Source: a virus
Direction: 5' to 3' (one strand)
Virus record (IMG/VR): IMGVR_UViG_3300049933_000058
Coordinates: 1-46,452 of that record
Length of the DNA: 46,452 bases
The notes below the pieces were generated by a model, which did no database searches, was not told the origin of the DNA, and saw nothing but the letters and a program-made list of their open reading frames with translations. The position numbers and the translations under genes are program-made. Position 1 is the first letter of the stretch, and the number at the start of each line of letters is the position of its first letter. This document shows positions 1-46,452 of this stretch, in pieces.

Positions 1-127
1 GTATCAACACTATACCTGTGTCTACAAGGTTGGCTATGGTGCTGATGATAATGGTTTTACCCTCGTCTCTCATCAGGTAGCCAGACTGCTCACAAAGGCG
101 CTGTAACAGTTTATAGTCACTCAAGCC
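1..127. repeat. Terminal direct repeat (left copy), identical to 46326..46452
   Basis: Bases 1-127 match 46326-46452 exactly. This implies a circular or terminally redundant complete assembly with a unique length of 46325 bp. Confidence 0.95.
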
Positions 128-3982: not shown

Positions 3983-4528
3983 ATGGACTATAGGAAGCCG
4001 GCAATGTTATCACAAGAGGAGTGGAGAAGAGGCTATGACCTCTGGTTAAGAAGTGGTTACACCCTAGAACAGGTAGGTAGGCACCTGGGGTTACGTCCTA
4101 ACAGTGGTCGGAGTGTGTCAACATATCTCAATAAATATTTTGGCAGGGGTGCGACAGACCCTATAGCCAACAGCTTTGTGAGGTCGATGGCTGAGGACTA
4201 TCCAGGTGAGCCGTGGGTGGCAGGGTTGGAACCGGAGGATAACCGGGGGTCTGGGAGGTTTATGACGATATCCGTAGAGCGTGGTTTAGCCACTAAGGGG
4301 ACGGCTAAACTGGTGGGGAACCGTTCTAATGAGATGAAGTACCGGATAGCTTACCAACAGTCTCTAAGACAGTCCTACGACCCGTGGGAGCAGTTTGAGC
4401 CTAAACCTTATAGCCTGCTGATGTTCACACTGGTTTTTAACGCTATTATCCCATTGTTAGAGTTGTTACTGAGAGGTCAGAATAGTGGCGGTATTCAACT
4501 ACAAAGCAATGTTATCACGAGTGACTGA
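3983..4528 (+). CDS. HTH-containing protein, possibly the DNA-recognition component of the small terminase
   Basis: HTH-like segment GYTLEQVGRHLGLRPNSGRSVSTYL. It sits directly upstream of the terminase genes. Confidence 0.5.
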   Translation: MDYRKPAMLSQEEWRRGYDLWLRSGYTLEQVGRHLGLRPNSGRSVSTYLNKYFGRGATDPIANSFVRSMAEDYPGEPWVAGLEPEDNRGSGRFMTISVERGLATKGTAKLVGNRSNEMKYRIAYQQSLRQSYDPWEQFEPKPYSLLMFTLVFNAIIPLLELLLRGQNSGGIQLQSNVITSD

Positions 4529-4811
4529 GTTTGGGGGTGACCCTCTACAACTCATGGAACAGGCAGAGGAGATAAGGTTGGCATCACTAAGTGAGGGTGT
4601 ACTCACCGAAAAGATATCGGTAAAGGATGGGGTGTTAGAGGTCAATGAGCGTAACCCCCAGACCGCCTTAGCAGCAGTCCGTTTAAAGTTTGACCTAACC
4701 AAGTGGTTGACAGTTCAAACCGAAGCTAACCAGGAGGAAAACACCGAGTGTAGGCTTGTTATAACAGGGTTGGATATGACGCCGCCGAAGGAGATACAAC
4801 GTTATGGGTGA
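4485..4811 (+). CDS. Terminase small subunit-like protein
   Basis: Its stop overlaps the large terminase start (ATGGGTGA). Size and position are typical. ATG 4509 is an alternative start. Confidence 0.5.
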   Translation: MAVFNYKAMLSRVTEFGGDPLQLMEQAEEIRLASLSEGVLTEKISVKDGVLEVNERNPQTALAAVRLKFDLTKWLTVQTEANQEENTECRLVITGLDMTPPKEIQRYG

Positions 4812-6132
4812 CTTGGTACTGACACCCCACCCTAAGCAGTGTGAAGTAATGAACAGCCGTGCCAAGGTGACGATGATAAGGGCGGGGCGACGGTGGGGTA
4901 AGACTAAGTTAGGTCAGTACCTCAGCATCCTTTGGTGTCTCAACTGGCGAGAGATGCTCCTTAGGAAGGGCTGGGATATGGAGGGGACATGGGCTGATGG
5001 GCATAAACCTGTGAACCTTGTGACAATGCCTACAGCAGTTATGGCTCGTCAAATATGGTTTGAGTCTCTCTATAGTATGTTATCACAACACCCTTTGGTA
5101 GCAAGTATCAATAAGCAGTCAATGACTTTTAAGTTTAAGGGTGACCGGCCTGACTTGTTGATAAGGGGGGCTAACGATGCCAATGGTGACCGCTTACGCG
5201 GGTTAAAAGTCATGGCACTGTGGGTAGACGAGGTACAGAACGTTAGACAACCTGTGATAGACCGTGTGTTGATGCCAGCAATGTCCGACTTACCCTTTAG
5301 TCAAGCCTATATGACGGGGACACCTCTTGGTAAGAGTAATGTCTTCTATAGACTGTGGCAACGTGATAACGGGGATAGCACCCGTCAACTAAACTACCAC
5401 TTTCCTACTGAAACTAACCCCTACTTCCCTAAGGATGAGTTAAGAGAGTATAAACTGATACTACCCCCGTCTGTTTACAGGGAGGAATATGAGGCGACCT
5501 GGGAAGACACCCCCGGTGCATGGTTCACCAGTCTGGATGAGGACAACCTCACAGACGAGTTACCGCCTGACTGGGAAGAGTGTATTCTAGGGGTTGACCA
5601 CGGCGACATCAACCCAGCCCATATTGTGATAGTTCGTTACAAAGACACCTGGATATATGTTGATGGGTGGCAACCCAATAACACAGCCGTTTCGGATGGT
5701 GAGGGGCATCAGTTTAAAGCATTGCCGATACCTGAGTATGAACAAAACGACTCCTTAGTGCAACTGGCTAAAAACTGGGACGTTACAGAGACCCGGTGTG
5801 ACCCTGCAAGACCAGCCAGAGTATTAGATATTCGTATACTGGGCAAAGAACAGCGTCTAACGGGGCTACAGAGGTCGGTAGCGGGTTATAACAAACAACT
5901 GGATGGCATCTCCCAGATGCATAACTTAATGGCTCAGAAGCGCTTGTTGTTTTACCGAGGGCAGAAGGCAGGCGGTAACACTCTAGACGGGCAAACCTTA
6001 TATGACCTGTGTAAAAGTTATCACAAGAAACTTGACCCTGATGGTAACCCGTTACCTATAGAGGCACCCGGTCAAAATAGCCATGCCATAGATGCTCTAA
6101 GGTATGCCATAGCGCGTCAAACTACCCGATAG
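4804..6132 (+). CDS. Terminase large subunit
   Basis: Walker A-like RAGRRWGKTKLG and Walker B LWVDEVQ. The C-terminal nuclease region carries acidic motifs (GVDHGD, HAIDALRYA). Confidence 0.85.
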   Translation: MGDLVLTPHPKQCEVMNSRAKVTMIRAGRRWGKTKLGQYLSILWCLNWREMLLRKGWDMEGTWADGHKPVNLVTMPTAVMARQIWFESLYSMLSQHPLVASINKQSMTFKFKGDRPDLLIRGANDANGDRLRGLKVMALWVDEVQNVRQPVIDRVLMPAMSDLPFSQAYMTGTPLGKSNVFYRLWQRDNGDSTRQLNYHFPTETNPYFPKDELREYKLILPPSVYREEYEATWEDTPGAWFTSLDEDNLTDELPPDWEECILGVDHGDINPAHIVIVRYKDTWIYVDGWQPNNTAVSDGEGHQFKALPIPEYEQNDSLVQLAKNWDVTETRCDPARPARVLDIRILGKEQRLTGLQRSVAGYNKQLDGISQMHNLMAQKRLLFYRGQKAGGNTLDGQTLYDLCKSYHKKLDPDGNPLPIEAPGQNSHAIDALRYAIARQTTR

Positions 6133-6379
6133 AATGCCAGTCCCCAGGGTCATTGATACATGAGGTTATATATGCTAATAGTACCTTTCTAGTACACTGA
6201 TATAGTGGCTCATGATACTGTTCTATACCCATTGCTATCTGGTCTAAAACATACAACAACTTAAAAGCCTCTTCATAGCAGCCTGCATCAGCCAGGAAGG
6301 CTACTGTTTTGAAAGCACCTAGTAACTTTATCATGTCCCCTCTATATACCCTTAAAAACTGTCTTATGCTTACCTCCAT
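6122..6379 (-). CDS. Possible small antisense-oriented gene between terminase and portal
   Basis: The 85-aa ORF fills the roughly 200-nt gap. Its ATG at 6379 sits 5 nt after a TGTGATAACA copy. No other support. Confidence 0.3.
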   Translation of the reverse strand: MEVSIRQFLRVYRGDMIKLLGAFKTVAFLADAGCYEEAFKLLYVLDQIAMGIEQYHEPLYQCTRKVLLAYITSCINDPGDWHSIG

Positions 6380-7910
6380 AACTTTGTTATCACAACTCCA
6401 CAGTCACTACAGTTACTATAGGGGTGCTTGGCAGACTATCAAAGACCTTAGGGAAGGGTTTGTCACCATAAGTGCTAAAAAGGAACGCTATGCACCCCAG
6501 CGGATAGGAGAGGAGCCCGAAGTCTATGCTAACCGCCTATCCTCCCTCAGTTACACTAATATCCTAAATGAGAACATCCACCGTCTAGCCTCTATCCTAA
6601 CCTCTACCCCAGTCAACCTAGAGTACACCGATACCCCTTTTTGGGATGAAGTCCTCAAACGCTTAGATGGTGCTAATATGAGCCATAATGACTTTATATA
6701 CTCCATCTACACCGACTTACTCTACTATGGTAGAGTCTGTATTGCTGTCGATAACCCTGTTATAACAAGTGCTGCAAGGTCACGACTAGAGTTTATAGAA
6801 GGTAGACAGTACCCTAGGGTGACTCTGTTTAACCCACTGGAAGTCATCAACTGGGGGGATGACTGGGTGATGACCCTACAGATAAATGAGGTTAACCAGC
6901 CGCTACAACCTAAGGCTATTTATGCTACCTGGAAACTGTGGACTCAGGACACTATCACAACTTGGTCTACTGAGGTCACAATAAACATTGACAATGTGAT
7001 AACAATGGTTAAAGTGGGTTCAAAGTGGTACTCACCTGAGGATAAAAGAGCAGTGTTACAAGGTGAGACACTAGAGCATGGTTGGGGCGGGTTGCCAGTC
7101 ATCAGACGTACTTTAAATGATGAGAAATGGGTTGGTGGTGCCGTCTATCCTAAGGCGTTGCAACACTTCAACATAGAGTCATCATGGACATGGGCAGGGC
7201 GTTATGCTGGCATTATACAGCGTGTCTTTATACCCTTAGCTCCTACTGCTAATGATAACCCTGCCTTACTTCTAGACCCACCCGACTATTCAGAGATGGT
7301 TAGCGACAATGCCCATGTTCTGATAGGGCAAGGCTTCCAGTTCGTAGAAACTACCGGAACAGCTATCACCACTTTAGGGGGACAGTTAGAAGCTATTAAG
7401 AACGATGTCAAAGACACTGTGAACATTACTTTTGCTTCGGGTGCCCCTGTTGAGCAGTCAGGAGTGGCTAAAAAGGTGGATATGCTACTCCTACAAAACG
7501 CCTTAACCTCCTATGGCTACCTGGGTACTGAAATAGATGAAGAAGTGTTAAGCACCATAGCCATGGTAGCAGGGACAGATGAGCCTACAGTTAAAAGCAA
7601 CCTGAGCTACTCTCTAGAAGACGCTACGACTGCCTTAGACACTGTGGATAGGGTTCTACCTCACGCTGAAAACGTTGCTCCCGTAACCCTCAGAGAGCTA
7701 TATAAGAAGTTACAACACCTATTACTACCTGATGTTCCTGACGAGATAAAAGAGGAGATAGACGCTGAAACACCCACCTTTGAAGACGAACCAGAGGCGG
7801 GTGAGGAGGAAGAAACCGAAGAAGACCCAAGAGGGCTGAAAGAACGCCTTATGGAGTACTTCAACCTAACTGAGGAGGAAGCTGAAGAAGTGCTACAGGA
7901 GAGCGAGTAG
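6309..7910 (+). CDS. Portal protein (putative)
   Basis: About 520-530 aa, follows the large terminase, and has a strongly acidic C-terminus. The start is uncertain (TTG 6309, ATG 6333 or ATG 6366). Confidence 0.6.
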   Translation: MKAPSNFIMSPLYTLKNCLMLTSITLLSQLHSHYSYYRGAWQTIKDLREGFVTISAKKERYAPQRIGEEPEVYANRLSSLSYTNILNENIHRLASILTSTPVNLEYTDTPFWDEVLKRLDGANMSHNDFIYSIYTDLLYYGRVCIAVDNPVITSAARSRLEFIEGRQYPRVTLFNPLEVINWGDDWVMTLQINEVNQPLQPKAIYATWKLWTQDTITTWSTEVTINIDNVITMVKVGSKWYSPEDKRAVLQGETLEHGWGGLPVIRRTLNDEKWVGGAVYPKALQHFNIESSWTWAGRYAGIIQRVFIPLAPTANDNPALLLDPPDYSEMVSDNAHVLIGQGFQFVETTGTAITTLGGQLEAIKNDVKDTVNITFASGAPVEQSGVAKKVDMLLLQNALTSYGYLGTEIDEEVLSTIAMVAGTDEPTVKSNLSYSLEDATTALDTVDRVLPHAENVAPVTLRELYKKLQHLLLPDVPDEIKEEIDAETPTFEDEPEAGEEEETEEDPRGLKERLMEYFNLTEEEAEEVLQESE

Positions 7911-8246
7911 GTAACCCACAGCAATGAGTCCACAGCGCATATACCACGGCGCTGTCAGTCTCCTCTCTAATACCACTGCTACCATACCCCCTATAGTGTA
8001 TGTTATAACAAACAGTGTTGAGGCAATGAGTAGGTAACCACCCATACTGACAGTAAAGGCGATGGTAGCGGTGTAGAGGATACCCTCTAAGAGCAACGCC
8101 TCAACTCCGCCACGGGGCGTCAACACACCTTCCCATACTTCCACATAGGATGTGAGAGGCCGTTGTTTATTGCCCTCTAAAGCTAGGTTGCGGGTCTCCT
8201 GTGTGAATGGAGTTGTGTTGGTAACCTGTATCACTGGTTTGCTCAT
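7893..8246 (-). CDS. Membrane protein with about 3 hydrophobic helices (holin candidate)
   Basis: Hydrophobic stretches LLLEGILYTATIAFTV, GGYLLIASTLFVITYTIGGMVAVV and GLIAVGYLLALL. Confidence 0.5.
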   Translation of the reverse strand: MSKPVIQVTNTTPFTQETRNLALEGNKQRPLTSYVEVWEGVLTPRGGVEALLLEGILYTATIAFTVSMGGYLLIASTLFVITYTIGGMVAVVLERRLTAPWYMRCGLIAVGYLLALL

Positions 8247-18379: not shown

Positions 18380-18566
18380 CGGTGAGGTTTGGTTTGAGTT
18401 AGAGGGTAGGAGTTTCACCAGAGACTCCTTACAACGCGCTCTAGTCTACGCTAATAAGGGTGTTATAACAACCACCCTTTTTTCTAATATCCCCCTATGG
18501 CAACTTATAGAAGTCCTAGAGTTCAGCTCTGAGTATTACTCGGAGTGTTATAACAATGAGCTATGA
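18348..18566 (+). CDS. Overlapping downstream frame of the tail chaperone (frameshift extension or separate small gene)
   Basis: It overlaps the previous ORF by 32 nt in the +1 frame and ends at the tape measure start. Confidence 0.45.
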   Translation: MTSFQFSVRFDGEVWFELEGRSFTRDSLQRALVYANKGVITTTLFSNIPLWQLIEVLEFSSEYYSECYNNEL

Positions 18567-20352
18567 TAATACAGTTAGTTTTCTATTCACGGCGACCGAC
18601 CGCGTAACCCGTACTGTCAACAACATCAAGAGCAGTATATCAGGTCTGACTGGTAGCGCTGCCCCTGGTGGTGTTGGCGGTGTGGCGGCTTCCTTCCTGG
18701 GTAACTTAGGCAGTAGCGCTGTGTTGGGTGGCATATCCCTTGCTACTCAGGGTATACAGAGAATGACCGGTGCTATGAATGACGCCGTATCAGCTCAAAC
18801 TGCCTTCATCACTACTGCATCAGGTCTTGGTAACTCCCTAGGAGTGCCTATGAAAGAGTCTAAAGCTCTACTGGAGACCCTACAGAAGGACTTAAGCACG
18901 GTAGCAGCAGTGCTACCGGGTGAAAATAAAGACTACCTAGCCGTGTTAAATATGCTCTCTGACACTGTTGCAACAGGGTTTAAGGGGGATATAGAGGGCT
19001 TTAAGGGTGCTATCCTAGACATAACCAAGAGGACAGCAGCGCTCGGTAGCACTATACCGGGTCTGTCCGGTGAAGCCTCAGGGCAGACTATGGAGATGCT
19101 CATGAATGGTAACACCCTCACAAGCCTCAAACGTCTAGACCTATTCCAAAAGAATGCACCCCTTAAAAACGCTTTAGAGCGTGAGATGAAGGCAGCTAAC
19201 CTAGAGGATAAGAACTGGACAAGGGCGACCTTAAAACAGCGTATAGCGGTCATACAGAAGGCGTTAAAAGCCACTGCCACTGATGAACTGTTCAGCGAGT
19301 TTCAAGACACGGCTGAGTCATTGATGCAGGGCATGAAGAACGCTATCTTTGATATGCAAACCGGCGTGTTCGGGTTTATGAGGAGAGTGGGTAGCCGTGA
19401 AGACCGAACTGTGCTAGATGCCTTCACCGAAGTATTGAAGCGTATCAGAACACTGGGCAGTGCCGGCAATAGGTTGGCGAGGGCGTTAGGCTTCTCCTTT
19501 GACCCTATGGAGACGCTCATAGACGTTATGGATGGTGTTAATAACTTCCTAGGTAACATTGCCTACCAGTTGGATATAAGCCCCCCAGAACTCGCTGTGA
19601 GCAACGTTATAGGCTTTATTGGTGAATGGGTCTCAGGTATGTTTAGCAAGGCTGTGGAGGGTGTCAAAGGCTTAGATAGCAGCTTTCTAGGTAAGGGCGT
19701 AGATATGATAGGACACTTTGTAGGTAATATTAACTGGACAACTGTCGGGAGACTACTTGGCAACACTGTGTGGAAGATGCTTATCGGGCTTGTGAGAGCT
19801 ATACCAAACGTCGCTATAACCGTAGGTAAAATAGCTGTAGGGCTTGTCCAGATAGTATCTGGGTTTGTCATAGGTGTTGTGGAAGGTATAGGCCAAAGCC
19901 TTTACAACCTATTTCTTAAACCCATAGTTGACTTCTTTAACCGAATGCGCGCTTGGTGGGATAAGCTCAAGTCATCTATGCCCAACCTGGGTGGTGTCGG
20001 TAACGCTGTGCAAGCGGTTGCTAACGTTGTCACAAACCCTGTAGGAGCTGCTATAAACCTAGGTAAGAAAGTATTAGGGATAGGTGATAACAAAGACAAA
20101 CCGCTCGCCCCCGGTCAGCCCCCGGTTAACGCGGATAAGGTGAATGCTGCCAACAAGGTAGCCAGCCCTATCAAACCGGTGGAACCGGTTAAGACAGTAC
20201 AGAAGACAGCCTCTAACAACACTCAGACCAACACCATCGCTGGGTTGACCATAAACGCGGCTAACGCCGGCACCCCTCAGGAGATAGCCAGCGTCGTTAT
20301 TGAAGAGTTAAACCGCCAACTCAACTTCAAAGTAGCTCAGCAACTAGCCTAG
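18556..20352 (+). CDS. Tape measure protein
   Basis: 598 aa, Gly/Ala-rich with hydrophobic segments, after the chaperone pair. Confidence 0.75.
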   Translation: MSYDNTVSFLFTATDRVTRTVNNIKSSISGLTGSAAPGGVGGVAASFLGNLGSSAVLGGISLATQGIQRMTGAMNDAVSAQTAFITTASGLGNSLGVPMKESKALLETLQKDLSTVAAVLPGENKDYLAVLNMLSDTVATGFKGDIEGFKGAILDITKRTAALGSTIPGLSGEASGQTMEMLMNGNTLTSLKRLDLFQKNAPLKNALEREMKAANLEDKNWTRATLKQRIAVIQKALKATATDELFSEFQDTAESLMQGMKNAIFDMQTGVFGFMRRVGSREDRTVLDAFTEVLKRIRTLGSAGNRLARALGFSFDPMETLIDVMDGVNNFLGNIAYQLDISPPELAVSNVIGFIGEWVSGMFSKAVEGVKGLDSSFLGKGVDMIGHFVGNINWTTVGRLLGNTVWKMLIGLVRAIPNVAITVGKIAVGLVQIVSGFVIGVVEGIGQSLYNLFLKPIVDFFNRMRAWWDKLKSSMPNLGGVGNAVQAVANVVTNPVGAAINLGKKVLGIGDNKDKPLAPGQPPVNADKVNAANKVASPIKPVEPVKTVQKTASNNTQTNTIAGLTINAANAGTPQEIASVVIEELNRQLNFKVAQQLA

Positions 20353-20564
20353 AGTATTTGTGATAACGCCACCACGTCACATCGTTCACCACTCTTACTT
20401 CCGATGACAACCGCCGCGTAGCCTTTGCCACGTTCTACCACACCTTGGTAATGGTTATTAACAAAGTATTCAGCCCTATAAACGCTCTCAGAATACTTTA
20501 ACCACTGTCCAAAGGTCACACGGCAGGGTAACACTGCCGGTACAAACTCTGTTAAACTAGACAT
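20349..20564 (-). CDS. Hypothetical protein
   Basis: 71-aa ORF. Confidence 0.4.
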   Translation of the reverse strand: MSSLTEFVPAVLPCRVTFGQWLKYSESVYRAEYFVNNHYQGVVERGKGYAAVVIGSKSGERCDVVALSQIL

Positions 20565-20607: not shown

Positions 20608-20796
20608 ATGACTAGACTTCAACCATCAGACTTAACTATCGGTAACGTCTACACCATCATATTTCCTAATAAGAGGGTAGCCACGGCTGAATACAGCAGT
20701 AATGAGGGTAACGCACTATGCTTTACCCTCACTGATGGTTATGTTGCAACAATACCACTAGATGGGTGGCGATACTGGGGTGTTGAAACTTTCTAG
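20608..20796 (+). CDS. Hypothetical protein
   Basis: 62-aa ORF. Confidence 0.4.
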   Translation: MTRLQPSDLTIGNVYTIIFPNKRVATAEYSSNEGNALCFTLTDGYVATIPLDGWRYWGVETF

Positions 20797-21077
20797 GTGA
20801 GCAGTGGCATAAGTACCTTGTTGGCTTTAGGTATTGGTGTGACTTCTACCATCTCATAGCCTTCTAGGTTTAAACAGGCAGCATAGAGGTCAAGGTTAGT
20901 GGTGTTGTAAGGGTCTCCTAGAGTATGCCCATAGTAACCCTGACTCATTGATAATGCATTCAAGGTATAAACATCCAAAGGTTCATACTCAGGTTCTACC
21001 AACTTATCAGGCTCATTGTGTGGTGTTGTGATAACAATATTAAGGAGGTTATCAAGGCGTTGAATATTTATGACCAT
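20793..21077 (-). CDS. Small protein coupled to the HExxH protein (immunity/inhibitor candidate)
   Basis: 94 aa. Its start overlaps the end of 21068..22270. Confidence 0.5.
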   Translation of the reverse strand: MVINIQRLDNLLNIVITTPHNEPDKLVEPEYEPLDVYTLNALSMSQGYYGHTLGDPYNTTNLDLYAACLNLEGYEMVEVTPIPKANKVLMPLLT

Positions 21078-22270
21078 TGGTTTATTAGTGTTCCTACGGT
21101 GAAGTGGTATAAGTCAGGGTCTTGACGGTAGAGCGTTGCCATGTTTTTAGAGGTGGTAAAGTCCTGTAAACCCATAGATGTTACTTCTGTCCCTACCTCC
21201 TTGAAACCGTTGTTATAAACTTTACCTATATATGGTGAATGGTATTTGCCAGGCAATGCTAGCTCATCTTCGCTATAACCCTCCATCCGTTCGGGTTTAA
21301 GTGAGAAAGCTCTATCATTACGCCATGAGATAGCAGCATCAAGCTGCTTACGGTTGTCTTCTTCCCAAGCGTGACCCGCCTCATGATAGGTTACAGTCCT
21401 ACTATAAAAAGACTTATCACCTACATTAAAGTAACCATCGTCTGTGTTAAAGTAAGGTCTATCTTTTTTGTAGCCTATTGTTTTAATAATGCCGTTACCC
21501 GACGTTAACTCATACAAGTCGGCAATATCTTTTTTAACTTTGGCTGCATACTCATTATCGAGGTTGTCAACCTTAACCTTGCTAGCTAACACCTCAGCCT
21601 CAGAACGGCTAATACGGCTATTAGCTCTTAGGTTACTTAGCAAAGTCTCATGAGCTGCTGACTCTAGCTCAAGTTGTTTAGAATACGCCTCATCTTTCTC
21701 CTTTACCTTTTTAGCTAGTTTGTTTATTAGTTTCTGTCTCTCCTCAGGCGTCCTAGCTGTTGCTACTCTCTTCAATAAGGCGTTACCCTCTTCCTTTAAC
21801 TTATCGACCCTGGCTGATAACTCCACCACCTTTGGGTCTGTTTTTATAAACTGTTCTGTATATGCCTTCCCAGCCCTTACAAACTCCTTAGAGCTGTATG
21901 CCTTCGGCTTGTCTACCACTTTCTTATACCGAACTTGTGATAACAAGTTCTCCTTCCATGAGTCTTTACGGTTTCTATAGCTGGTAGGTTGGCTCACCCC
22001 TGCCTTATTGGTTAACTTCCTTAGGTCTGATAAGTTCATCTTATCCAGTTCCTTGGTCAGCTCTCCCAAACTCTTAGAGGTTAGACCCTTACTATTAAGC
22101 AGGCTAACTAACTTAGTAGCCTGCTTTGATGAGAGTTCCTTCTCTATTCGCTTACGTTCTTTGCCAACGTTATGTTTAACCTGTACTGCTTTCGCGCCCG
22201 GTGTCCCCTTGCTAGCAAACCTCCCTTTGGCGTCTCTATAATATGTTCTAGTTACCGTCTTCCCAGCCAT
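21068..22270 (-). CDS. Modular protein: basic/coiled-coil N-terminus shared with 22568..24010, plus a C-terminal HExxH zincin-like domain
   Basis: Carries TVTYHEAGHAWEED. Its N-terminal RDAKGRFASKG ... KERKRIEKELSSKQ parallels RKGNGQFNGS ... RERDRIKAELSQEQ in the paralogue. Confidence 0.6.
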   Translation of the reverse strand: MAGKTVTRTYYRDAKGRFASKGTPGAKAVQVKHNVGKERKRIEKELSSKQATKLVSLLNSKGLTSKSLGELTKELDKMNLSDLRKLTNKAGVSQPTSYRNRKDSWKENLLSQVRYKKVVDKPKAYSSKEFVRAGKAYTEQFIKTDPKVVELSARVDKLKEEGNALLKRVATARTPEERQKLINKLAKKVKEKDEAYSKQLELESAAHETLLSNLRANSRISRSEAEVLASKVKVDNLDNEYAAKVKKDIADLYELTSGNGIIKTIGYKKDRPYFNTDDGYFNVGDKSFYSRTVTYHEAGHAWEEDNRKQLDAAISWRNDRAFSLKPERMEGYSEDELALPGKYHSPYIGKVYNNGFKEVGTEVTSMGLQDFTTSKNMATLYRQDPDLYHFTVGTLINQWS

Positions 22271-22303
22271 GTTAAAACAAAGTGTCTATAACGGGGGACT
22301 GTG

Positions 22304-22564
22304 TTAACTAGGTTCATCTAGTTGGGCAATGTCTATCTGGGCATCGTCAGACTGGTCTGCCCAGTTAAACTCGGCTTCTGAACCATCTGAGAAAGTGATG
22401 AGAAACCTAGCGTTACCCAAGTCGTTAACAGGGTCAAAGTCTAACATCCGGTAAGAACCGTCTGAGGCCACACCGTCATTATAAAGGATAACCGGGGCAT
22501 CCTCATCCAACTTTGTAGTGTCAACTTCTACCTGGTTTCCAGACTGGTCTACTAACGTTAACAT
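22304..22564 (-). CDS. Small acidic protein following the LHH-motif protein (immunity/inhibitor candidate)
   Basis: 86 aa, D/E-rich, starting 4 nt after the stop of 22568..24010. Confidence 0.5.
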   Translation of the reverse strand: MLTLVDQSGNQVEVDTTKLDEDAPVILYNDGVASDGSYRMLDFDPVNDLGNARFLITFSDGSEAEFNWADQSDDAQIDIAQLDEPS

Positions 22565-22567
22565 ATT

Positions 22568-24010
22568 TTACTTACTCGCTCTTAGTACTTTATTATTCAT
22601 TATACTGTTAAACTCATCAGGAGTCAACTCACCTCGCCTCAGGCGTCGGTTCACCTCACCGGCTACGGCGTGAGCGTTCTGCCGGTGCCATTCACCCCAA
22701 TAACTATCCCTCACGTCGTTATGATACTCTCTACCCTCAGTTAGACCATACTCAGAACCACTCTTAGACTTGTCTGGTAACCCAAACTTCACAACCTCAC
22801 CCGTATCAGGGTGTATCCCCTTGGGGTGGTTTAAGTCATAATAGTGTGGCGAGGTTAGGTCATGCAACCCACCCGGTAACACTACATAGGCGCGCTCCTT
22901 CTGGCTAGCAGCAGCTATCTCATACTTACCGTGGGGCGTCGGTCTCAACAGTTCTCTTGACTGTGCCTTAGCCTCCTCCAGGCTTATCTCGCCAGCTTCA
23001 TACTTCTTAACAATGCTGTCCAATGGCACCTTAGCCCATTGGTTAATGTGGTGAAGCTGTGCCTGCCCGTACTGACCAGGCTTGCCCATTCTACTCTCGT
23101 CAGGCAGTCTACCCCAAGAGTTAGCGTTCCAATAGGGTGCTGGCGCTTTCAGCCCCTTGTCATGGTTTTCCACAAACCTCATAGCTGTAGCTAACTCACC
23201 TATTAGCTGCTCATTATTTAGGTTACGGCTTATTTTAACATTGTTTGGCACACCTAAAACCGTTTCACCCTTGTGTATCATAACACTCCGGTTACGGTTT
23301 AAACTTTCACCACCAACCTCATAGTTATACTCCTTCTTACCTCTAAAGGTAGTATCTTTGTATTGGCCGTAGGTCTTACCCTCCCATATCCTAAGACGCT
23401 TACCCTCTACCTTAAATGAGCCTTCTTCTATGGGTGCCCTGTCAGGTTTATTCGCTTTAAGCCTTGCCTCTGTGGCTACAAGGGGTAACAACTCAGCCTC
23501 ACCAAATGCCAACGGTTTACCAGCGTTGAACTTCTTCTGAGCCTTTCTAGCTAGGCTCATCAGTTTCTTATCTGCCTTCTGGGTCTTAAACTGCTCATTT
23601 AGTTGGATAGCAGTCTTCTGTTGCTTCTCTAGGATACGCAGGTTAAAGGCGTCTAACGGGTCAGTAGTGCCCTTCCTAGCGGCTTCCTTCATCTTCTTCT
23701 TAAGTGCTGTAACCTCTTTCTTTAGGTTCCTAGCCTGTTCACCATACTTAAGAGAGCGCGGGGCTGACGGTTTAGCCAGCACACCCCCCAACCTTTTACG
23801 TTGCTCCTGTGACAACTCAGCCTTTATCCTGTCTCTCTCCCTAGCCACTTTAACAGCACCTAACACACTGCTGGAGGCCGACTTAGCGCCATTCTTCCGG
23901 GACACCTTAGCTGTTTTCCCTGACCCTACAGAGCCATTAAACTGTCCGTTACCCTTCCTTAAGTACTTCGCAGCTTCTTTAACCTTACTCCTAGATACAT
24001 TCTTAGGCAC
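22568..24010 (-). CDS. Modular protein: shared basic N-terminus plus a C-terminal LHH-motif region (possible HNH/EndoVII-fold nuclease)
   Basis: AQLHHINQW followed by LPGGLHDLTSPHYYDLNHPKG. GTG start per the ORF track. Confidence 0.5.
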   Translation of the reverse strand: MPKNVSRSKVKEAAKYLRKGNGQFNGSVGSGKTAKVSRKNGAKSASSSVLGAVKVARERDRIKAELSQEQRKRLGGVLAKPSAPRSLKYGEQARNLKKEVTALKKKMKEAARKGTTDPLDAFNLRILEKQQKTAIQLNEQFKTQKADKKLMSLARKAQKKFNAGKPLAFGEAELLPLVATEARLKANKPDRAPIEEGSFKVEGKRLRIWEGKTYGQYKDTTFRGKKEYNYEVGGESLNRNRSVMIHKGETVLGVPNNVKISRNLNNEQLIGELATAMRFVENHDKGLKAPAPYWNANSWGRLPDESRMGKPGQYGQAQLHHINQWAKVPLDSIVKKYEAGEISLEEAKAQSRELLRPTPHGKYEIAAASQKERAYVVLPGGLHDLTSPHYYDLNHPKGIHPDTGEVVKFGLPDKSKSGSEYGLTEGREYHNDVRDSYWGEWHRQNAHAVAGEVNRRLRRGELTPDEFNSIMNNKVLRASK

Positions 24011-24065: not shown

Positions 24066-24287
24066 ATGCAAGTCTTGGTTACCTCTATCTACTCTGACCC
24101 TGCAAGCCCTCAGGGTGATATTTACGTTGTTACTCATAATAGTGACCACCACCCAAACCCCATGAGCATTAAAGCTGAGGCACCTTTACAACGTGGCGCT
24201 CGCTACGATGTTACATTGCCCCACCCAGCCATTTGTCAGCGTCTCTACGATGGTAACCACTACCCTGTTGCAACAAACATACAATGA
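24066..24287 (+). CDS. Hypothetical protein
   Basis: 73-aa ORF after the promoter. No clear RBS. Confidence 0.4.
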   Translation: MQVLVTSIYSDPASPQGDIYVVTHNSDHHPNPMSIKAEAPLQRGARYDVTLPHPAICQRLYDGNHYPVATNIQ

Positions 24288-24514
24288 TAAAACATTACCT
24301 ATTAACCCAACCTCTTGTTACAGCAGAGTTACTCGCCGCGTCCAATGCCGTAGAACTGCCATTCAGGCTTGTTACAGGTGATGACTTCCTAGGAAGTGAT
24401 AAAGTCCTATACAGTTAAAACCTGCTTAGTCACCTCTTTCAACGGAGAGACCGTTATTGTCACGTACCTCCAAACAGTCAAATAACTCTGTTATCACAAT
24501 GACACAGTAGTACT

Positions 24515-24899: not shown

Positions 24900-24972
24900 G
24901 GTACTATGGCTCAATGGTTAGAGCAGCTTCCTTATAAGAGGTTGGTTATGGGTTCGAGTCCCATTAGTACCA
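24900..24972 (+). tRNA. tRNA-Ile, anticodon UAU (reads AUA)
   Basis: Hand fold: GGTACTA-TG-GCTC-AATGGTTA-GAGC-A-GCTTC-CTTATAA-GAGGT-TGGTT-ATGGG-TTCGAGT-CCCAT-TAGTACC-A. Total 73 nt, with a 7-bp acceptor stem and a canonical T loop. Confidence 0.85.
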
Positions 24973-25001
24973 CTCTGTTATCACAATACTACGACCACCA
25001 T

Positions 25002-26170: not shown

Positions 26171-27208
26171 TTAGGGTGTCCCTAAGTCTGTAATAATACC
26201 TAGTTGTTTGCGGTTGTGGTACTGCAACTGTGGCATAACATACATTTCAAAGTTGTATACCGCTGAGTTGTTGCTCGGTAACTGTGCCATATAGAGGACA
26301 AACCCTCCTAGACGGGTTGCAGCAACTATCTTAGCCTGTGGGGTCATTGCTGACATCTGCCCCTGACCTTGGAAAAGGAAGCTGTAGAGCTTCATATAAC
26401 CCGTGTTCAGAAACAACATAGTGTCACTAGGACACTGAGGGTCAACCACCATCTCTCTACCCATGTAGGAGAACTCACCACGACCTAGGTCTACGTTGGC
26501 GTCTTTCATCTCGCCACCGGAGTAGCCCACTAGCTTATCAAACTCAGCACCGTATAGGCGTTTGATAGCAGGGCTGATGATAACTAGGTCAAAGGATACT
26601 TCGTTTAAGTAGAGTGACTCCTCAAACTCATCCAGGATGGCTCTTGTCAAGGGTCGGTTAGTACCGGCGTTACCCAGGATAACCCCCGGTTTCCACACAG
26701 GGTACGTTGCTGGGTTAATAGTGGCATAGGTAGCGGCTGGGTCACATATGAGGTTCAGCCCTGCAATGCCTGACTCCGCACTGCCACCAGACTGGATACC
26801 ATTACCCGTGTATAGACGGTTGTTGAGCTTACGGCGTATCTCCCTGATGGAGTTGTCTATCTCTACGTTGAGAATGCGCGCTAAGTCTTCCGGCGCTCGG
26901 TTGTAGGCTTCACTGATGCTTACCGCATCAACTTGGAAGCGTCTATAGATACGACGTTTACCGATACGTAACTCGGCATTGATAGCATCATCGGAAGCTG
27001 TGATAGTGGTGTCTTCAACCACAGCACCTTCACCCACTGCGGTACCGTCTATTTCCACGTCCCACCCGATAAAAGTATCACTTTTATCGATAACTTCAAT
27101 ACGGTCTGTGAGGGCATCAAAGGTAGGTGCCATCTCTTTCTGAGTCTTGGCTACCCTATCGTCTAACACCTTGTTTAGCACCGGGTCGCCGAGGTTAAGA
27201 ATAGTCAT
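26171..27208 (-). CDS. Major capsid protein (putative)
   Basis: 345 aa, directly downstream of a scaffold-like gene. Called from size and position only. Confidence 0.6.
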   Translation of the reverse strand: MTILNLGDPVLNKVLDDRVAKTQKEMAPTFDALTDRIEVIDKSDTFIGWDVEIDGTAVGEGAVVEDTTITASDDAINAELRIGKRRIYRRFQVDAVSISEAYNRAPEDLARILNVEIDNSIREIRRKLNNRLYTGNGIQSGGSAESGIAGLNLICDPAATYATINPATYPVWKPGVILGNAGTNRPLTRAILDEFEESLYLNEVSFDLVIISPAIKRLYGAEFDKLVGYSGGEMKDANVDLGRGEFSYMGREMVVDPQCPSDTMLFLNTGYMKLYSFLFQGQGQMSAMTPQAKIVAATRLGGFVLYMAQLPSNNSAVYNFEMYVMPQLQYHNRKQLGIITDLGTP

Positions 27209-45378: not shown

Positions 45379-46452
45379 CTAAGGACTCGATAACGCCTTA
45401 ATGGTTTCACCCTTTTTAGGTATCCTCAGACCGAGCGCGCTAGTGTAGTTATAGGTTCCTCCACCAGATGACCGATAGGTGTTGCCTTGTAACCCAGTAA
45501 TATCAATGTGAAGATGCACCCCTGTAACCTTACCTGTAGCGCCTTGCTTACCTATTAACTCACCTCTCTTAACCTGTTGACCCATCCTAACTAAGCGCGC
45601 TGATAGGTGCATGTATCTGATAATGCTACCATCAGCGTGTTTTATATTGATACAGGTACCACTGCCAGCAAACCCACAGACCACACCGTCTTGCATAGAA
45701 TAGACAGGTGTCCCCTCACTTGCCGCGATGTCTAGACCGATGTGGGGGGAAGTACCAACGCTTCTTATTTGGTTCTGAGTAGAGGTGACCGTGCCATTAG
45801 TAGGCCAAACGTAACCCTGTCCTGTTGGTGGCTGTGGTGGTGTTTCCCCATTGGATACCCCTCCGGGTACCGAGTTATCCAAAACCTCTACAGGGCTGTA
45901 TACATTGAGTGTGGTGGTACCCTCTCTCAGGTTATGCTCTACCTTATCAATAGCCCATATCCGTGATAACACCCCTGGTAAACCCTCTGTGATAACAGTA
46001 AACAATGGTGCTAGGGTTAGGGAGGTCTTAGACAACGGGATAACAAAGGTAGAGGGTAACCCCTTGAGGCGCTTAGTACGGGCAACCTGTGTTGCAACAG
46101 TAGCTTGTGACTCCGGTGCGACCGTGGCTTGTTTGTTGTCTGACTTTGCCCCCGTAGCTGCTTTGTCCTTAGCCTTGTCAATATCAGGTGACTTAGCCTT
46201 AAAGGTGCCAGTAGCCGGTTCTAACTCTGTCTTCTGCTCTGTTTGGACAACACTCCTACCCTCATCCTCAGCATCGTCACCCAACGCCTCATCCTTGATA
46301 TCCCACTTCAACAGGTTTAGACCCGGTATCAACACTATACCTGTGTCTACAAGGTTGGCTATGGTGCTGATGATAATGGTTTTACCCTCGTCTCTCATCA
46401 GGTAGCCAGACTGCTCACAAAGGCGCTGTAACAGTTTATAGTCACTCAAGCC
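45379..46452 (-). CDS. Tail hub / tail-associated lysin, C-terminal part with M23 peptidase domain. Continues into 1..1264.
   Basis: M23 metallopeptidase motifs HIGLDIAA ... GVHLHIDI at the C-terminus. LSDYKLLQRLCEQSGY is weakly gpD-like. The ORF is open to the window end and continues at base 1264 via the overlap. Confidence 0.8.
   Translation of the reverse strand, partial: GLSDYKLLQRLCEQSGYLMRDEGKTIIISTIANLVDTGIVLIPGLNLLKWDIKDEALGDDAEDEGRSVVQTEQKTELEPATGTFKAKSPDIDKAKDKAATGAKSDNKQATVAPESQATVATQVARTKRLKGLPSTFVIPLSKTSLTLAPLFTVITEGLPGVLSRIWAIDKVEHNLREGTTTLNVYSPVEVLDNSVPGGVSNGETPPQPPTGQGYVWPTNGTVTSTQNQIRSVGTSPHIGLDIAASEGTPVYSMQDGVVCGFAGSGTCINIKHADGSIIRYMHLSARLVRMGQQVKRGELIGKQGATGKVTGVHLHIDITGLQGNTYRSSGGGTYNYTSALGLRIPKKGETIKALSSP
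46326..46452. repeat. Terminal direct repeat (right copy)
   Basis: Identical to bases 1-127. Confidence 0.95.

Follow-up and report, generated by a model that had tools for sequence, protein, structure and literature searches.

Bacteriophage T4 directs its internal proteins into the prohead by a short N-terminal capsid-targeting sequence and injects them together with its DNA; the targeting sequence is removed by the gp21 protease. One T4 head-internal protein, Alt, is cited in the description of phage polyvalent proteins, chains of 2–15 domains, in which a fusion to MuF or portal is accepted as marking an effector that is packaged and injected (Iyer et al. 2017, PMC5512222). Among MuF polymorphic toxins more than half of the toxin tips are nucleases and 20% are metallopeptidases, and it is anticipated that MuF toxins require protection by an immunity protein (Jamet et al. 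2017, PMC5576092). The present analysis concerns two gene pairs in IMG/VR virus record IMGVR_UViG_3300049933_000058, analysed over its whole length of 46,452 nucleotides (nt) and referred to here as the window. The first pair encodes a protein of 480 amino acids (aa), A480, and a small open reading frame (ORF), a86; the second encodes a 400-aa protein, B400, and a small ORF, b94. With moderate confidence, A480 and B400 are probably capsid-packaged, injected effectors with inhibitor or immunity partners. An original prediction, made from the letters of the window, had proposed effectors of this kind.

All four ORFs were found on the minus strand where they had been predicted, with a small ORF coupled to each of the two large ones (Table 1). 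A480 has a GTG start codon, and the same MPKNVSR sequence opens its homologues. The N-termini of A480 and B400 read as degenerate copies of the motif [WF]-D-x-x-K-H-P-R-G-x-x-G-R-F, followed by an ERxRIxxEL helix. Profile-profile comparison of the A-family and B-family N-termini with hhalign aligned 53 columns (probability 96.5%, E 7e-10) and paired KYLRKGNGQF...ARERDRIKAELSQEQRKRL with TYYRDAKGRF...GKERKRIEKELSSKQATKL, exactly the two stretches that had been quoted as a shared basic region; a purely compositional similarity was rejected on this ground. Direct BLASTP between the two N-termini was weak (E ~0.002 with composition correction off). Bridging sequences were found in the A-type protein P0009 (KHPRGNKGRFAETPDAPKAA; canonical motif form NKHPRGNKGRFAETPDAPKAA) and the B-type protein P0018 (KHPRGAGGKFIHTPDAPKAAK; canonical motif form SKHPRGAGGKFIHTPDAPKAAK), and the A-type protein P0025 (RYLRDAKGRYAGSVGAG) links the two motif variants of the window. 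In a six-frame translation of the window the loose form of the motif occurs twice only, at the N-termini of A480 and B400. The two proteins had been described as tandem paralogues. Their first 60–80 residues are homologous, but the C-termini are unrelated; since the homology is confined to the N-terminal module, the proteins are not paralogous throughout.

The strict motif pattern was present within the first ~40 residues of at least 24 of the 51 A-family proteins, and a looser pattern in about 33 of them; members carrying the canonical motif come from Nostocales and from metagenomes. The N-terminal module of B400 is nearly invariant across seven proteins with differing C-termini. Taken together, the module carries at least four types of C-terminus (the A domain, the B domain, a non-enzymatic repeat module and PBECR3), so that the C-terminal domain swapping anticipated among relatives is indeed seen. 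Behind the module, residues 70–99 of B400 align to the Pfam-validated Rho_N/HeH repeats of IMG/VR protein L031 (E 4e-4 in a tiny search space); Pfam itself gave no HeH/Rho_N match on B400.

As a separate observation on the repeat module, proteins P0015–P0017 (L005 6001-6906) join a B-type N-terminal module to a twice-repeated GNKGSK(K/R)RN..W..KQL..IP...PYPLGG..KAKW sequence. One copy of this GNKGSK(K/R)RN...-type module also lies between the N-terminal module and the coiled coil in P0012–P0014; it has no Pfam match.

The motif was also searched for in other phages. A scan of IMG/VR with a degenerate DNA pattern for KHPRGxxGRF gave 49 exact sites at 48 loci, of which 47 were inside long ORFs. 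Flanking positions outside the search pattern are conserved as well (W or F at −4, D at −3, E or P at −2). About 15 sites fall within the first 60 residues of an ORF, and the remainder are internal to large proteins. When seven of the large motif proteins were run against Pfam, the motif was found in the architectures listed in Table 1. In the 1024-aa ORF L051, which has four copies of the motif, Pfam assigned an ADP-ribosyltransferase (ART) domain after the first copy, and the other three copies are followed by unassigned sequence. Judged against a small reference set, 17 of the 48 motif loci have portal or MuF ORFs, and at about a dozen of the 17 the motif is inside the portal or MuF ORF or no more than 4 kb downstream on the same strand. 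The L051 protein has, by appearance, a beads-on-a-string layout of a repeated junction or processing signal.

Searches by tblastn with a 37-aa motif consensus gave non-significant E-values of 0.1–0.3, and these matches were informative only after their position had been inspected. In Rhizobium phage RHph_N28_2, the ORF directly after the portal gene opens with FDPSKHPRGANGRFLST and ends in PBECR3 (E 6e-8). The annotated start of this gene, EVB88_010 (locus position 4109), is probably too far downstream and hides the motif, which the longer ORF includes. The gene behind the portal gene of Gordonia phage Sixama, gp73, has the motif at residues 30–41, and a small downstream ORF overlaps it by 4 nt. 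The C-terminus of gp73 shows, by eye only, a ParB-like DGHHRF motif, and downstream of gp73 and the small gp74 lies the large gp75 (L015 7532-10063), annotated as an ADP-ribosyltransferase. With gp73, gp74 and gp75 in a row, several putative cargo genes are therefore clustered after the portal gene of this phage.

Because the motif lies between portal or MuF and ART or PBECR domains, or opens genes that follow the portal gene, it marks a junction between anchor and cargo. It is possible, though we put this forward only tentatively, that the KHPRGxxGRF motif and its basic helix form a portable, widely conserved signal for capsid loading, processing or ejection that starts every head-delivered cargo unit. 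Anchor-free effectors might then be packaged by the motif alone, and chromosomal islets of Nostocales, described below, could load their motif-tagged A-type enzyme into the capsid of a helper. Full-text searching of the literature for the motif returned unrelated papers only, and term searches of PMC5512222 and PMC5576092 gave no mention of it.

The C-terminal domain of A480 (A domain) was used to build a HMMER profile (aa 190–480), and an exhaustive search of 1.84 billion proteins gave 61 representative clusters. Across 51 A-domain proteins, residues H320, H321, H383, H395, R427 and W438 never vary. Every full-length match has the domain at its C-terminus except P0037, in which ~180 residues lie beyond it. 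A pattern-based genome scan for A-type loci recovered seven genomes, all of them Nostocales. In protein P0029 (1115 aa) the A domain follows Phage_portal_3 (E 2e-40) and InPase (E 6e-12) domains. An AlphaFold2 (AF2) model of A480, with a mean predicted local distance difference test score (pLDDT) of 72, has residues 1–87 disordered, long helices at 89–186 and a folded domain at 190–480. In this model the HH pair ends a strand (316–322), H383 follows a strand (374–379) and H395 follows a helix (388–394), with ~50 residues forming two helices and a hairpin inserted between the motif halves. The modelled arrangement of the histidines is compatible with a His-Me finger. The Pfam LHH family (PF14411) matched three of the 51 A-family members at E ≤0.01 (best 0.0016), and in P0030 an LHH match (15.3 bits, E 0.024) covers the invariant MQLHHVHQW stretch. 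An L-H-H strand end with a later V-V-x-P-x-x-H is presumably a resemblance to ColE7/E9, which we take as a lead and not as a test. With moderate confidence, the A domain is predicted to be a metal-dependent enzyme, most likely an LHH-like His-Me-finger nuclease.

In the C-terminal domain of B400 (B domain), residues H296, E297, H300 and E303, the PYxGxxY sequence and T-E362-V-x-S-x-G are invariant in six proteins that are ~28–38% identical to B400 where measured. The HExxH zincin motif noted in the original prediction is accordingly conserved at the sequence level, within HExxHxxE, and HExxH with a downstream Glu as third ligand is the pattern expected of a gluzincin. The B domain is predicted to be a gluzincin-like zinc metallopeptidase. 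PHROG 20397, a family of unknown function, matches aa 217–395 of B400 (E 8e-17). Pfam and NCBIfam gave no peptidase match on B400, and B400, matching no Pfam family, could be placed in none of the described peptidase families, including those built from polyvalent proteins. A B-family profile searched against PDB sequences gave chance-level matches only.

The B domain also occurs in proteins tied to the phage head. Protein P0019 (597 aa) consists of a Phage_Mu_F/SPP1 gp7 domain (E 6e-20, 6e-24) followed by the B domain, and its gene lies directly after an SPP1-type portal gene (E 4e-102). P0018 consists of the motif, two HeH-like repeats and the B domain, and its gene overlaps the end of a portal gene. 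The B domain terminates a 738-aa protein of a Vibrio Ackermannviridae phage as well. The tips are therefore shared among delivery contexts: B is found on MuF, on the motif module and on the 738-aa Vibrio protein, and A on portal-InPase and on the motif module.

A480 has nine homologues, six of them full-length with 61–83% identity, and its ratio of nonsynonymous to synonymous substitution rates (dN/dS) is 0.08 against P0002. The a86 ORF is 70% and 49% identical to its counterparts in the related loci L001 and L009 and also has a dN/dS of 0.08. B400 has three full-length homologues (31–38% identity). The b94 ORF is 45% identical (E 1e-18) to a 91-aa ORF that overlaps the end of P0014; divergence between these two is saturated, and their dN/dS value is not interpretable. 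Pfam, NCBIfam and PHROGs gave nothing on the four proteins except PHROG 20397, so that a86 has no similarity to known families in these databases, and a tblastn search with A480 against phages gave no match. Weak Pfam matches to GvpG, SHOCT, Seryl_tRNA_N and sCache_2 fell on short helical or coiled-coil stretches and were regarded as noise.

The coupling of each large gene to a small downstream ORF proved to be a conserved linkage. A-type genes were followed by an acidic small ORF (73–86 aa, isoelectric point (pI) 4.05, 0–13 nt away) in 12 of 12 contexts, namely the window, L001, L009, two Nostocales loci and seven loci from the genome scan; these partners fall into at least three sequence families. 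B-type genes had a small ORF overlapping or no more than 9 nt away in all four contexts (the window, L006, L010 and the Vibrio Ackermannviridae phage), with a 9-nt gap after P0018 and a 4-nt overlap after the Vibrio phage protein. Across the 16 contexts the partner always starts between a 20-nt overlap and 15 nt downstream, and it is nearly always acidic. In P0015, which joins a B-type N-terminus to the non-enzymatic repeat module, the next 490 nt are without an ORF. The type of small ORF tracks the C-terminal domain: a86-type with A, b94-type with B, and none with the non-enzymatic tip. By sequence and position, a86 and b94 are most likely candidate inhibitor or immunity (or chaperone) proteins.

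These linkages bear on the explanation that A480 is a selfish homing-type HNH endonuclease, with B400 an unrelated accessory, the N-terminal similarity compositional and the small ORFs unrelated neighbours. Free-standing HNH genes are common in phage genomes, and the weak direct BLASTP match between the N-termini would suit such an origin. The hhalign homology, together with the bridging sequences, and the linkage of partner ORFs in 16 of 16 contexts contradict it. In addition, A480 gave no HNH Pfam match, has a dN/dS of 0.08 and keeps its neighbours in related phages, with an a86-type ORF downstream and a homologous 148–150-aa ORF upstream. We regard this explanation as highly improbable.

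The second pair appears to be mobile. In the closest relative the a86 homologue is directly followed by a homologue of the 71-aa ORF of the window, and B400 with b94 is therefore a two-gene insertion. B-type genes of relatives sit elsewhere, beside a Tail_P2_I gene, which indicates that the B400-b94 pair moves as a cassette. Within the first pair, the 3' end of A480 contains a sigma-70-like site. The window as a whole has two matches this good (11/12 or better), where shuffled sequence averages 0.9, and L001 and L009 have kept both hexamers. This is suggestive of a possible internal promoter for a86, reminiscent of the promoters of immunity genes; it goes no further than that because the bases of the hexamers also encode the conserved residues ELT and SIM.

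Nine Nostocales genomes (L002, L007 and L064–L070; Dolichospermum, Nostoc and Amazonocrinis chromosomes) share a small gene set. In order, these islets comprise a 293-aa protein and a 74-aa RHH_3 protein, both on the minus strand, an A-type protein with the canonical KHPRG motif, and one or two acidic ORFs of 73–81 aa. A tyrosine integrase is present within ~5 kb in six of the nine, two different acidic ORFs stand in tandem in two, and no virion genes were recognised in any of the nine. The islets could be satellites or defence islets. Their gene content speaks for an explanation in which the pairs of the window are intracellular two-gene conflict modules (toxin-antitoxin, abortive infection, superinfection exclusion or anti-competitor) that are never packaged, the N-terminal module binding DNA or a partner. 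The two tandem acidic ORFs resemble an immunity gene array, and the mobile behaviour of B400 with b94 and the possible promoter before a86 would agree with such modules. However, other proteins have these domains and this motif in one chain with portal or MuF, motif-initiated genes directly follow the portal gene in three unrelated phages, the genes lie among structural genes in the window, L001, L005 and L006, and the islets might themselves be satellites of phages, using the capsids of a helper. Conflict modules of this kind are, in our assessment, unlikely.

The position of the genes in the structural region raises a further explanation, that A480 and B400 are morphogenetic or structural head proteins (analogues of MuF, scaffold or internal-core proteins), with the HExxH domain processing head components, the small ORFs acting as assembly chaperones and no effector role. 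Both proteins have long coiled coils, neither a MuF homologue nor a prohead protease was recognised among the window ORFs scanned, and motif genes hold the classical MuF position after the portal gene elsewhere; metallopeptidases of polyvalent proteins have been allowed a self-processing role (PMC5512222). On the other side, B400 and b94 are missing from the closest related 48.5-kb contig, whose B-type protein is without the HExxH domain, and the pair is therefore dispensable for assembly; B400 as an essential prohead protease was rejected on the same ground. The A domain is found in chromosomal islets without virion genes, and in homologous architectures it is ART and PBECR toxin domains that stand at the C-terminal positions in question. 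A purely structural role is accordingly judged quite unlikely.

The observations comprise modularity, N-terminal homology, conservation of catalytic-type residues, portal and MuF fusions, partner linkage and cassette mobility, and the combination of shared module, variable tip and small partner that characterises polymorphic toxin/immunity systems is present in sequence and gene order, as the original prediction had it. That prediction had also named assignment to ordinary structural families without catalytic residues as the outcome that would speak against it. Pfam, NCBIfam and PDB sequence searches yielded no family for A480 or B400, Foldseek yielded none for A480, and the catalytic-type residues are invariant. 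If A480 and B400 are packaged effectors, they would be made late in infection alongside acidic partners that silence or chaperone the enzymes. The N-terminal motif module would direct the enzymes into the prohead, or onto packaged DNA or the portal, and the partners would stay in the producing cell while the enzymes are packaged. At the next infection the enzymes would be ejected with the DNA, A480 attacking host nucleic acid and B400 host proteins, possibly defence components. A480 and B400 would in this way be stand-alone cargo units, individually encoded.

Several points weigh against packaged effectors. Portal and MuF domains are absent from A480 and B400, whose genes lie ~13 kb from the portal gene of the window. 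The motif could be a loading signal, but equally a cleavage site or a DNA contact. The A-type genes of the islets are at least as compatible with a toxin-antitoxin or defence function inside the cell. The a86 ORF is under strong purifying selection like A480, and is not hypervariable as many immunity proteins are. For the A domain, an HH motif that is invariant in 51 proteins and the weak LHH matches are compatible with the predicted LHH-type HNH/EndoVII nuclease, but A-family LHH scores reach ~15 bits at most against a gathering cut-off of 23.3, and with E-values up to 1 allowed A480 gave no LHH/HNH Pfam match. Foldseek with the AF2 model of A480 gave nothing at E <0.1 in PDB or BFVD, the A-domain profile matched PDB sequences at chance level only, and a mini-profile of the HH...H...H core, which spanned 53 positions and left out the insertion, matched nothing in the PDB at E up to 10. 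For the B domain, the AF2 model is unreliable (pLDDT <50 over residues 259–370). Finally, we infer encapsidation, injection, the nuclease and peptidase activities and the inhibitor role of a86 and b94 from sequence and gene context.

Table 1. Positions of the features described in the text; nucleotide positions are those of the window unless a locus or residues are given.
Feature	Position	Strand	Description
A480, 480 aa	22568-24010	minus	N-terminal junction motif, basic helix, coiled coil, C-terminal four-histidine enzyme-like domain
A480 N-terminal module, aa 15-81	23768-23968	minus	KYLRKGNGQF and helix ARERDRIKAELSQEQRKRL
A480 motif KYLRKGNGQF, aa 15-24	23939-23968	minus	Degenerate KHPRGxxGRF type
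A-type C-terminal domain, aa 190-480	22571-23443	minus	Predicted metal-dependent enzyme
H320, H321 codons	23048-23053	minus	
Sigma-70-like site TTGACT-17-TATAAT	22599-22627	minus	Inside A480 3' end, 35 nt upstream of a86 ATG
a86, 86 aa	22304-22564	minus	Very acidic, pI 4.05; start 3 nt past A480 stop
B400, 400 aa	21068-22270	minus	N-terminal junction motif, helix, HeH-like segment, coiled coil, C-terminal HExxH domain
B400 N-terminal module, aa 9-61	22088-22246	minus	TYYRDAKGRF and helix GKERKRIEKELSSKQATKL
B400 motif TYYRDAKGRF	22217-22246	minus	
B400 HeH/Rho-N-like segment, aa 70-105	21956-22063	minus	MNLSDLRKLTNKAGVSQPTSYRNRK; putative DNA-binding element
B-type C-terminal domain, aa 217-400	21071-21622	minus	HExxHxxE, PYxGxxY, T-E362-V-x-S-x-G
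HExxH	21371-21385	minus	
E362 codon	21185-21187	minus	
b94, 94 aa	20793-21077	minus	Acidic, pI 4.30; overlaps B400 stop by 10 nt
62-aa ORF	20608-20796	plus	Fills gap after b94; no homologues detected
71-aa ORF	20349-20564	minus	Downstream edge of block; 37% identical (E 4e-15) to 76-aa ORF of L001
Large terminase (TerL)	4804-6132		
Portal	6309-7910		
Tape-measure-like protein (TMP)	18556-20352		
tRNA-Ile, anticodon TAT	24900-24973	plus	Between MCP region and A480
Major head protein (MCP)	26171-27208	minus	
Large motif protein (residues)	portal (101-439) - motif (502) - PBECR1 (554-642)		
Large motif protein (residues)	portal (63-419) - motif (489) - unknown		
Large motif protein (residues)	MuF (514-622) - motif (640) - unknown		
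Large motif protein (residues)	unknown - motif (669) - ADP-ribosyltransferase (ART) (716-885)		
Large motif protein (residues)	motif (254) - two Rho_N/HeH - HExxH		
L051 (IMG/VR 3300021519_000049), 1024-aa ORF	~residues 63, 333, 629, 895		Four W-D-E-S-K-H-P-R-x-x-x-G-R-F copies
RHph_N28_2 EVB88_010, longer ORF	L014 3947-4468		Includes KHPRG motif

An exact 127-bp direct terminal repeat (window 1-127 and 46326-46452) indicates that the window is a complete genome of ~46.3 kb, circularly closed or terminally redundant. In addition to the structural genes of Table 1 it encodes sheath, tube, tail fibres, baseplate J, a family A DNA polymerase and an M23 peptidase. The sheath is ~31% identical to those of the Nostoc, Anabaena and Dolichospermum myophages A-1(L), N-1, Elbi, YongM and Dfl-JY23; these relatives, together with the Nostocales homologues of the proteins studied here, identify the virus as a divergent myovirus-like cyanophage of heterocystous cyanobacteria. 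The A480/a86/B400/b94 block is flanked by the head-gene side and by a convergent tail operon. Between positions 20000 and 25000, DNA similarity to annotated phages is limited to the tRNA-Ile gene. The homologue of the 71-aa ORF adjoins the tape-measure gene in the related phage L001.

A 10-mer, TGT[GT][AG][TC][AC]ACA (TGTKRYMACA), occurs in 77 copies in the window (for example at 21027, 21936, 24266 and 24489), of which 42 are TGTGATAACA/TGTTATCACA and 22 are the palindrome TGTTATAACA. This iterated motif had been reported as sparse in the block, with two copies. Copies are few there, but the counts differ: three fall between 20300 and 22000, and the stretch from 22000 to 24000 has none. The 10-mer could be a regulator-binding or methylation-related site. 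In the related 48.5-kb phage contig L001, a homologue of NblA (phycobilisome degradation) is encoded at 7886-8077, downstream of the major head gene; the window has small ORFs at 24066-24418.

Both tip domains and their partner families are undescribed, and no mention of the motif as a constant part was found in the papers searched. If A480 and B400 are packaged effectors, two unannotated enzyme families, each with a cognate family of small partners, would join the known injected proteins, and capsid cargo could be encoded by free-standing genes and not only by MuF or portal fusions. Without such a fusion, proteins that are carried in the capsid and work within minutes of the start of infection are difficult to identify; a short tag could find injected proteins across phage genomes, and might in principle also serve to bring proteins of choice into phage particles. 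The findings are relevant to the way in which phages of bloom-forming Nostocales (Dolichospermum, Nostoc) get past the defences of their hosts, and they tie phage cargo genes to small, integrase-bearing islets in the chromosomes of these cyanobacteria.

Among known systems, the T4 head-internal proteins (Alt, IPI-III) are likewise small-to-medium non-structural proteins; they have no sequence similarity to A480 or B400. Colicin E-type HNH DNases with their Im proteins, and LHH toxins, likewise have a very acidic partner of ~85 aa directly downstream, and a possible promoter for the partner inside the toxin gene is a further likeness to the colicin E-type DNases. A480 differs from these nucleases in the ~50-residue insert between its motif halves in the AF2 model, in LHH scores below the cut-off and in having no PDB match.

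With the polyvalent proteins of phages and conjugative elements (Iyer et al. 2017, PMC5512222) the present system has both logic and domains in common, namely portal or MuF anchors, InPase, ART, PBECR, zincin-like metallopeptidase and Rho-N/HeH DNA-binding domains. The A domain terminates one such portal-InPase polyvalent protein, P0029, and the motif separates the domains of proteins of this type. P0029 and L051 are clearly polyvalent. A480 and B400, by contrast, are single-effector and anchor-free: A480 has one enzyme-like domain, and B400 a HeH-like segment with a peptidase-like domain.

MuF polymorphic toxins (Jamet et al. 2017, PMC5576092) differ from A480 and B400 in their constant part, which is a 110-residue MuF fold and not an 80-residue motif-plus-helix; PF04233/TIGR01641 (MuF/SPP1-gp7), the models that define MuF, gave no match on A480 or B400 at E up to 1. 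The A480 and B400 genes do not adjoin the portal gene here, and both tips are outside Pfam. MuF toxins belong to temperate phages, whereas this phage looks like a lytic-type cyanomyovirus, with no integrase recognised among the window ORFs scanned. In other respects the systems agree. MuF polymorphic toxins likewise have a constant, head-tied N-terminus, a variable enzymatic C-terminal tip and a small candidate protective gene nearby, and one MuF protein, P0019, has the B-type domain itself as its C-terminal extension.

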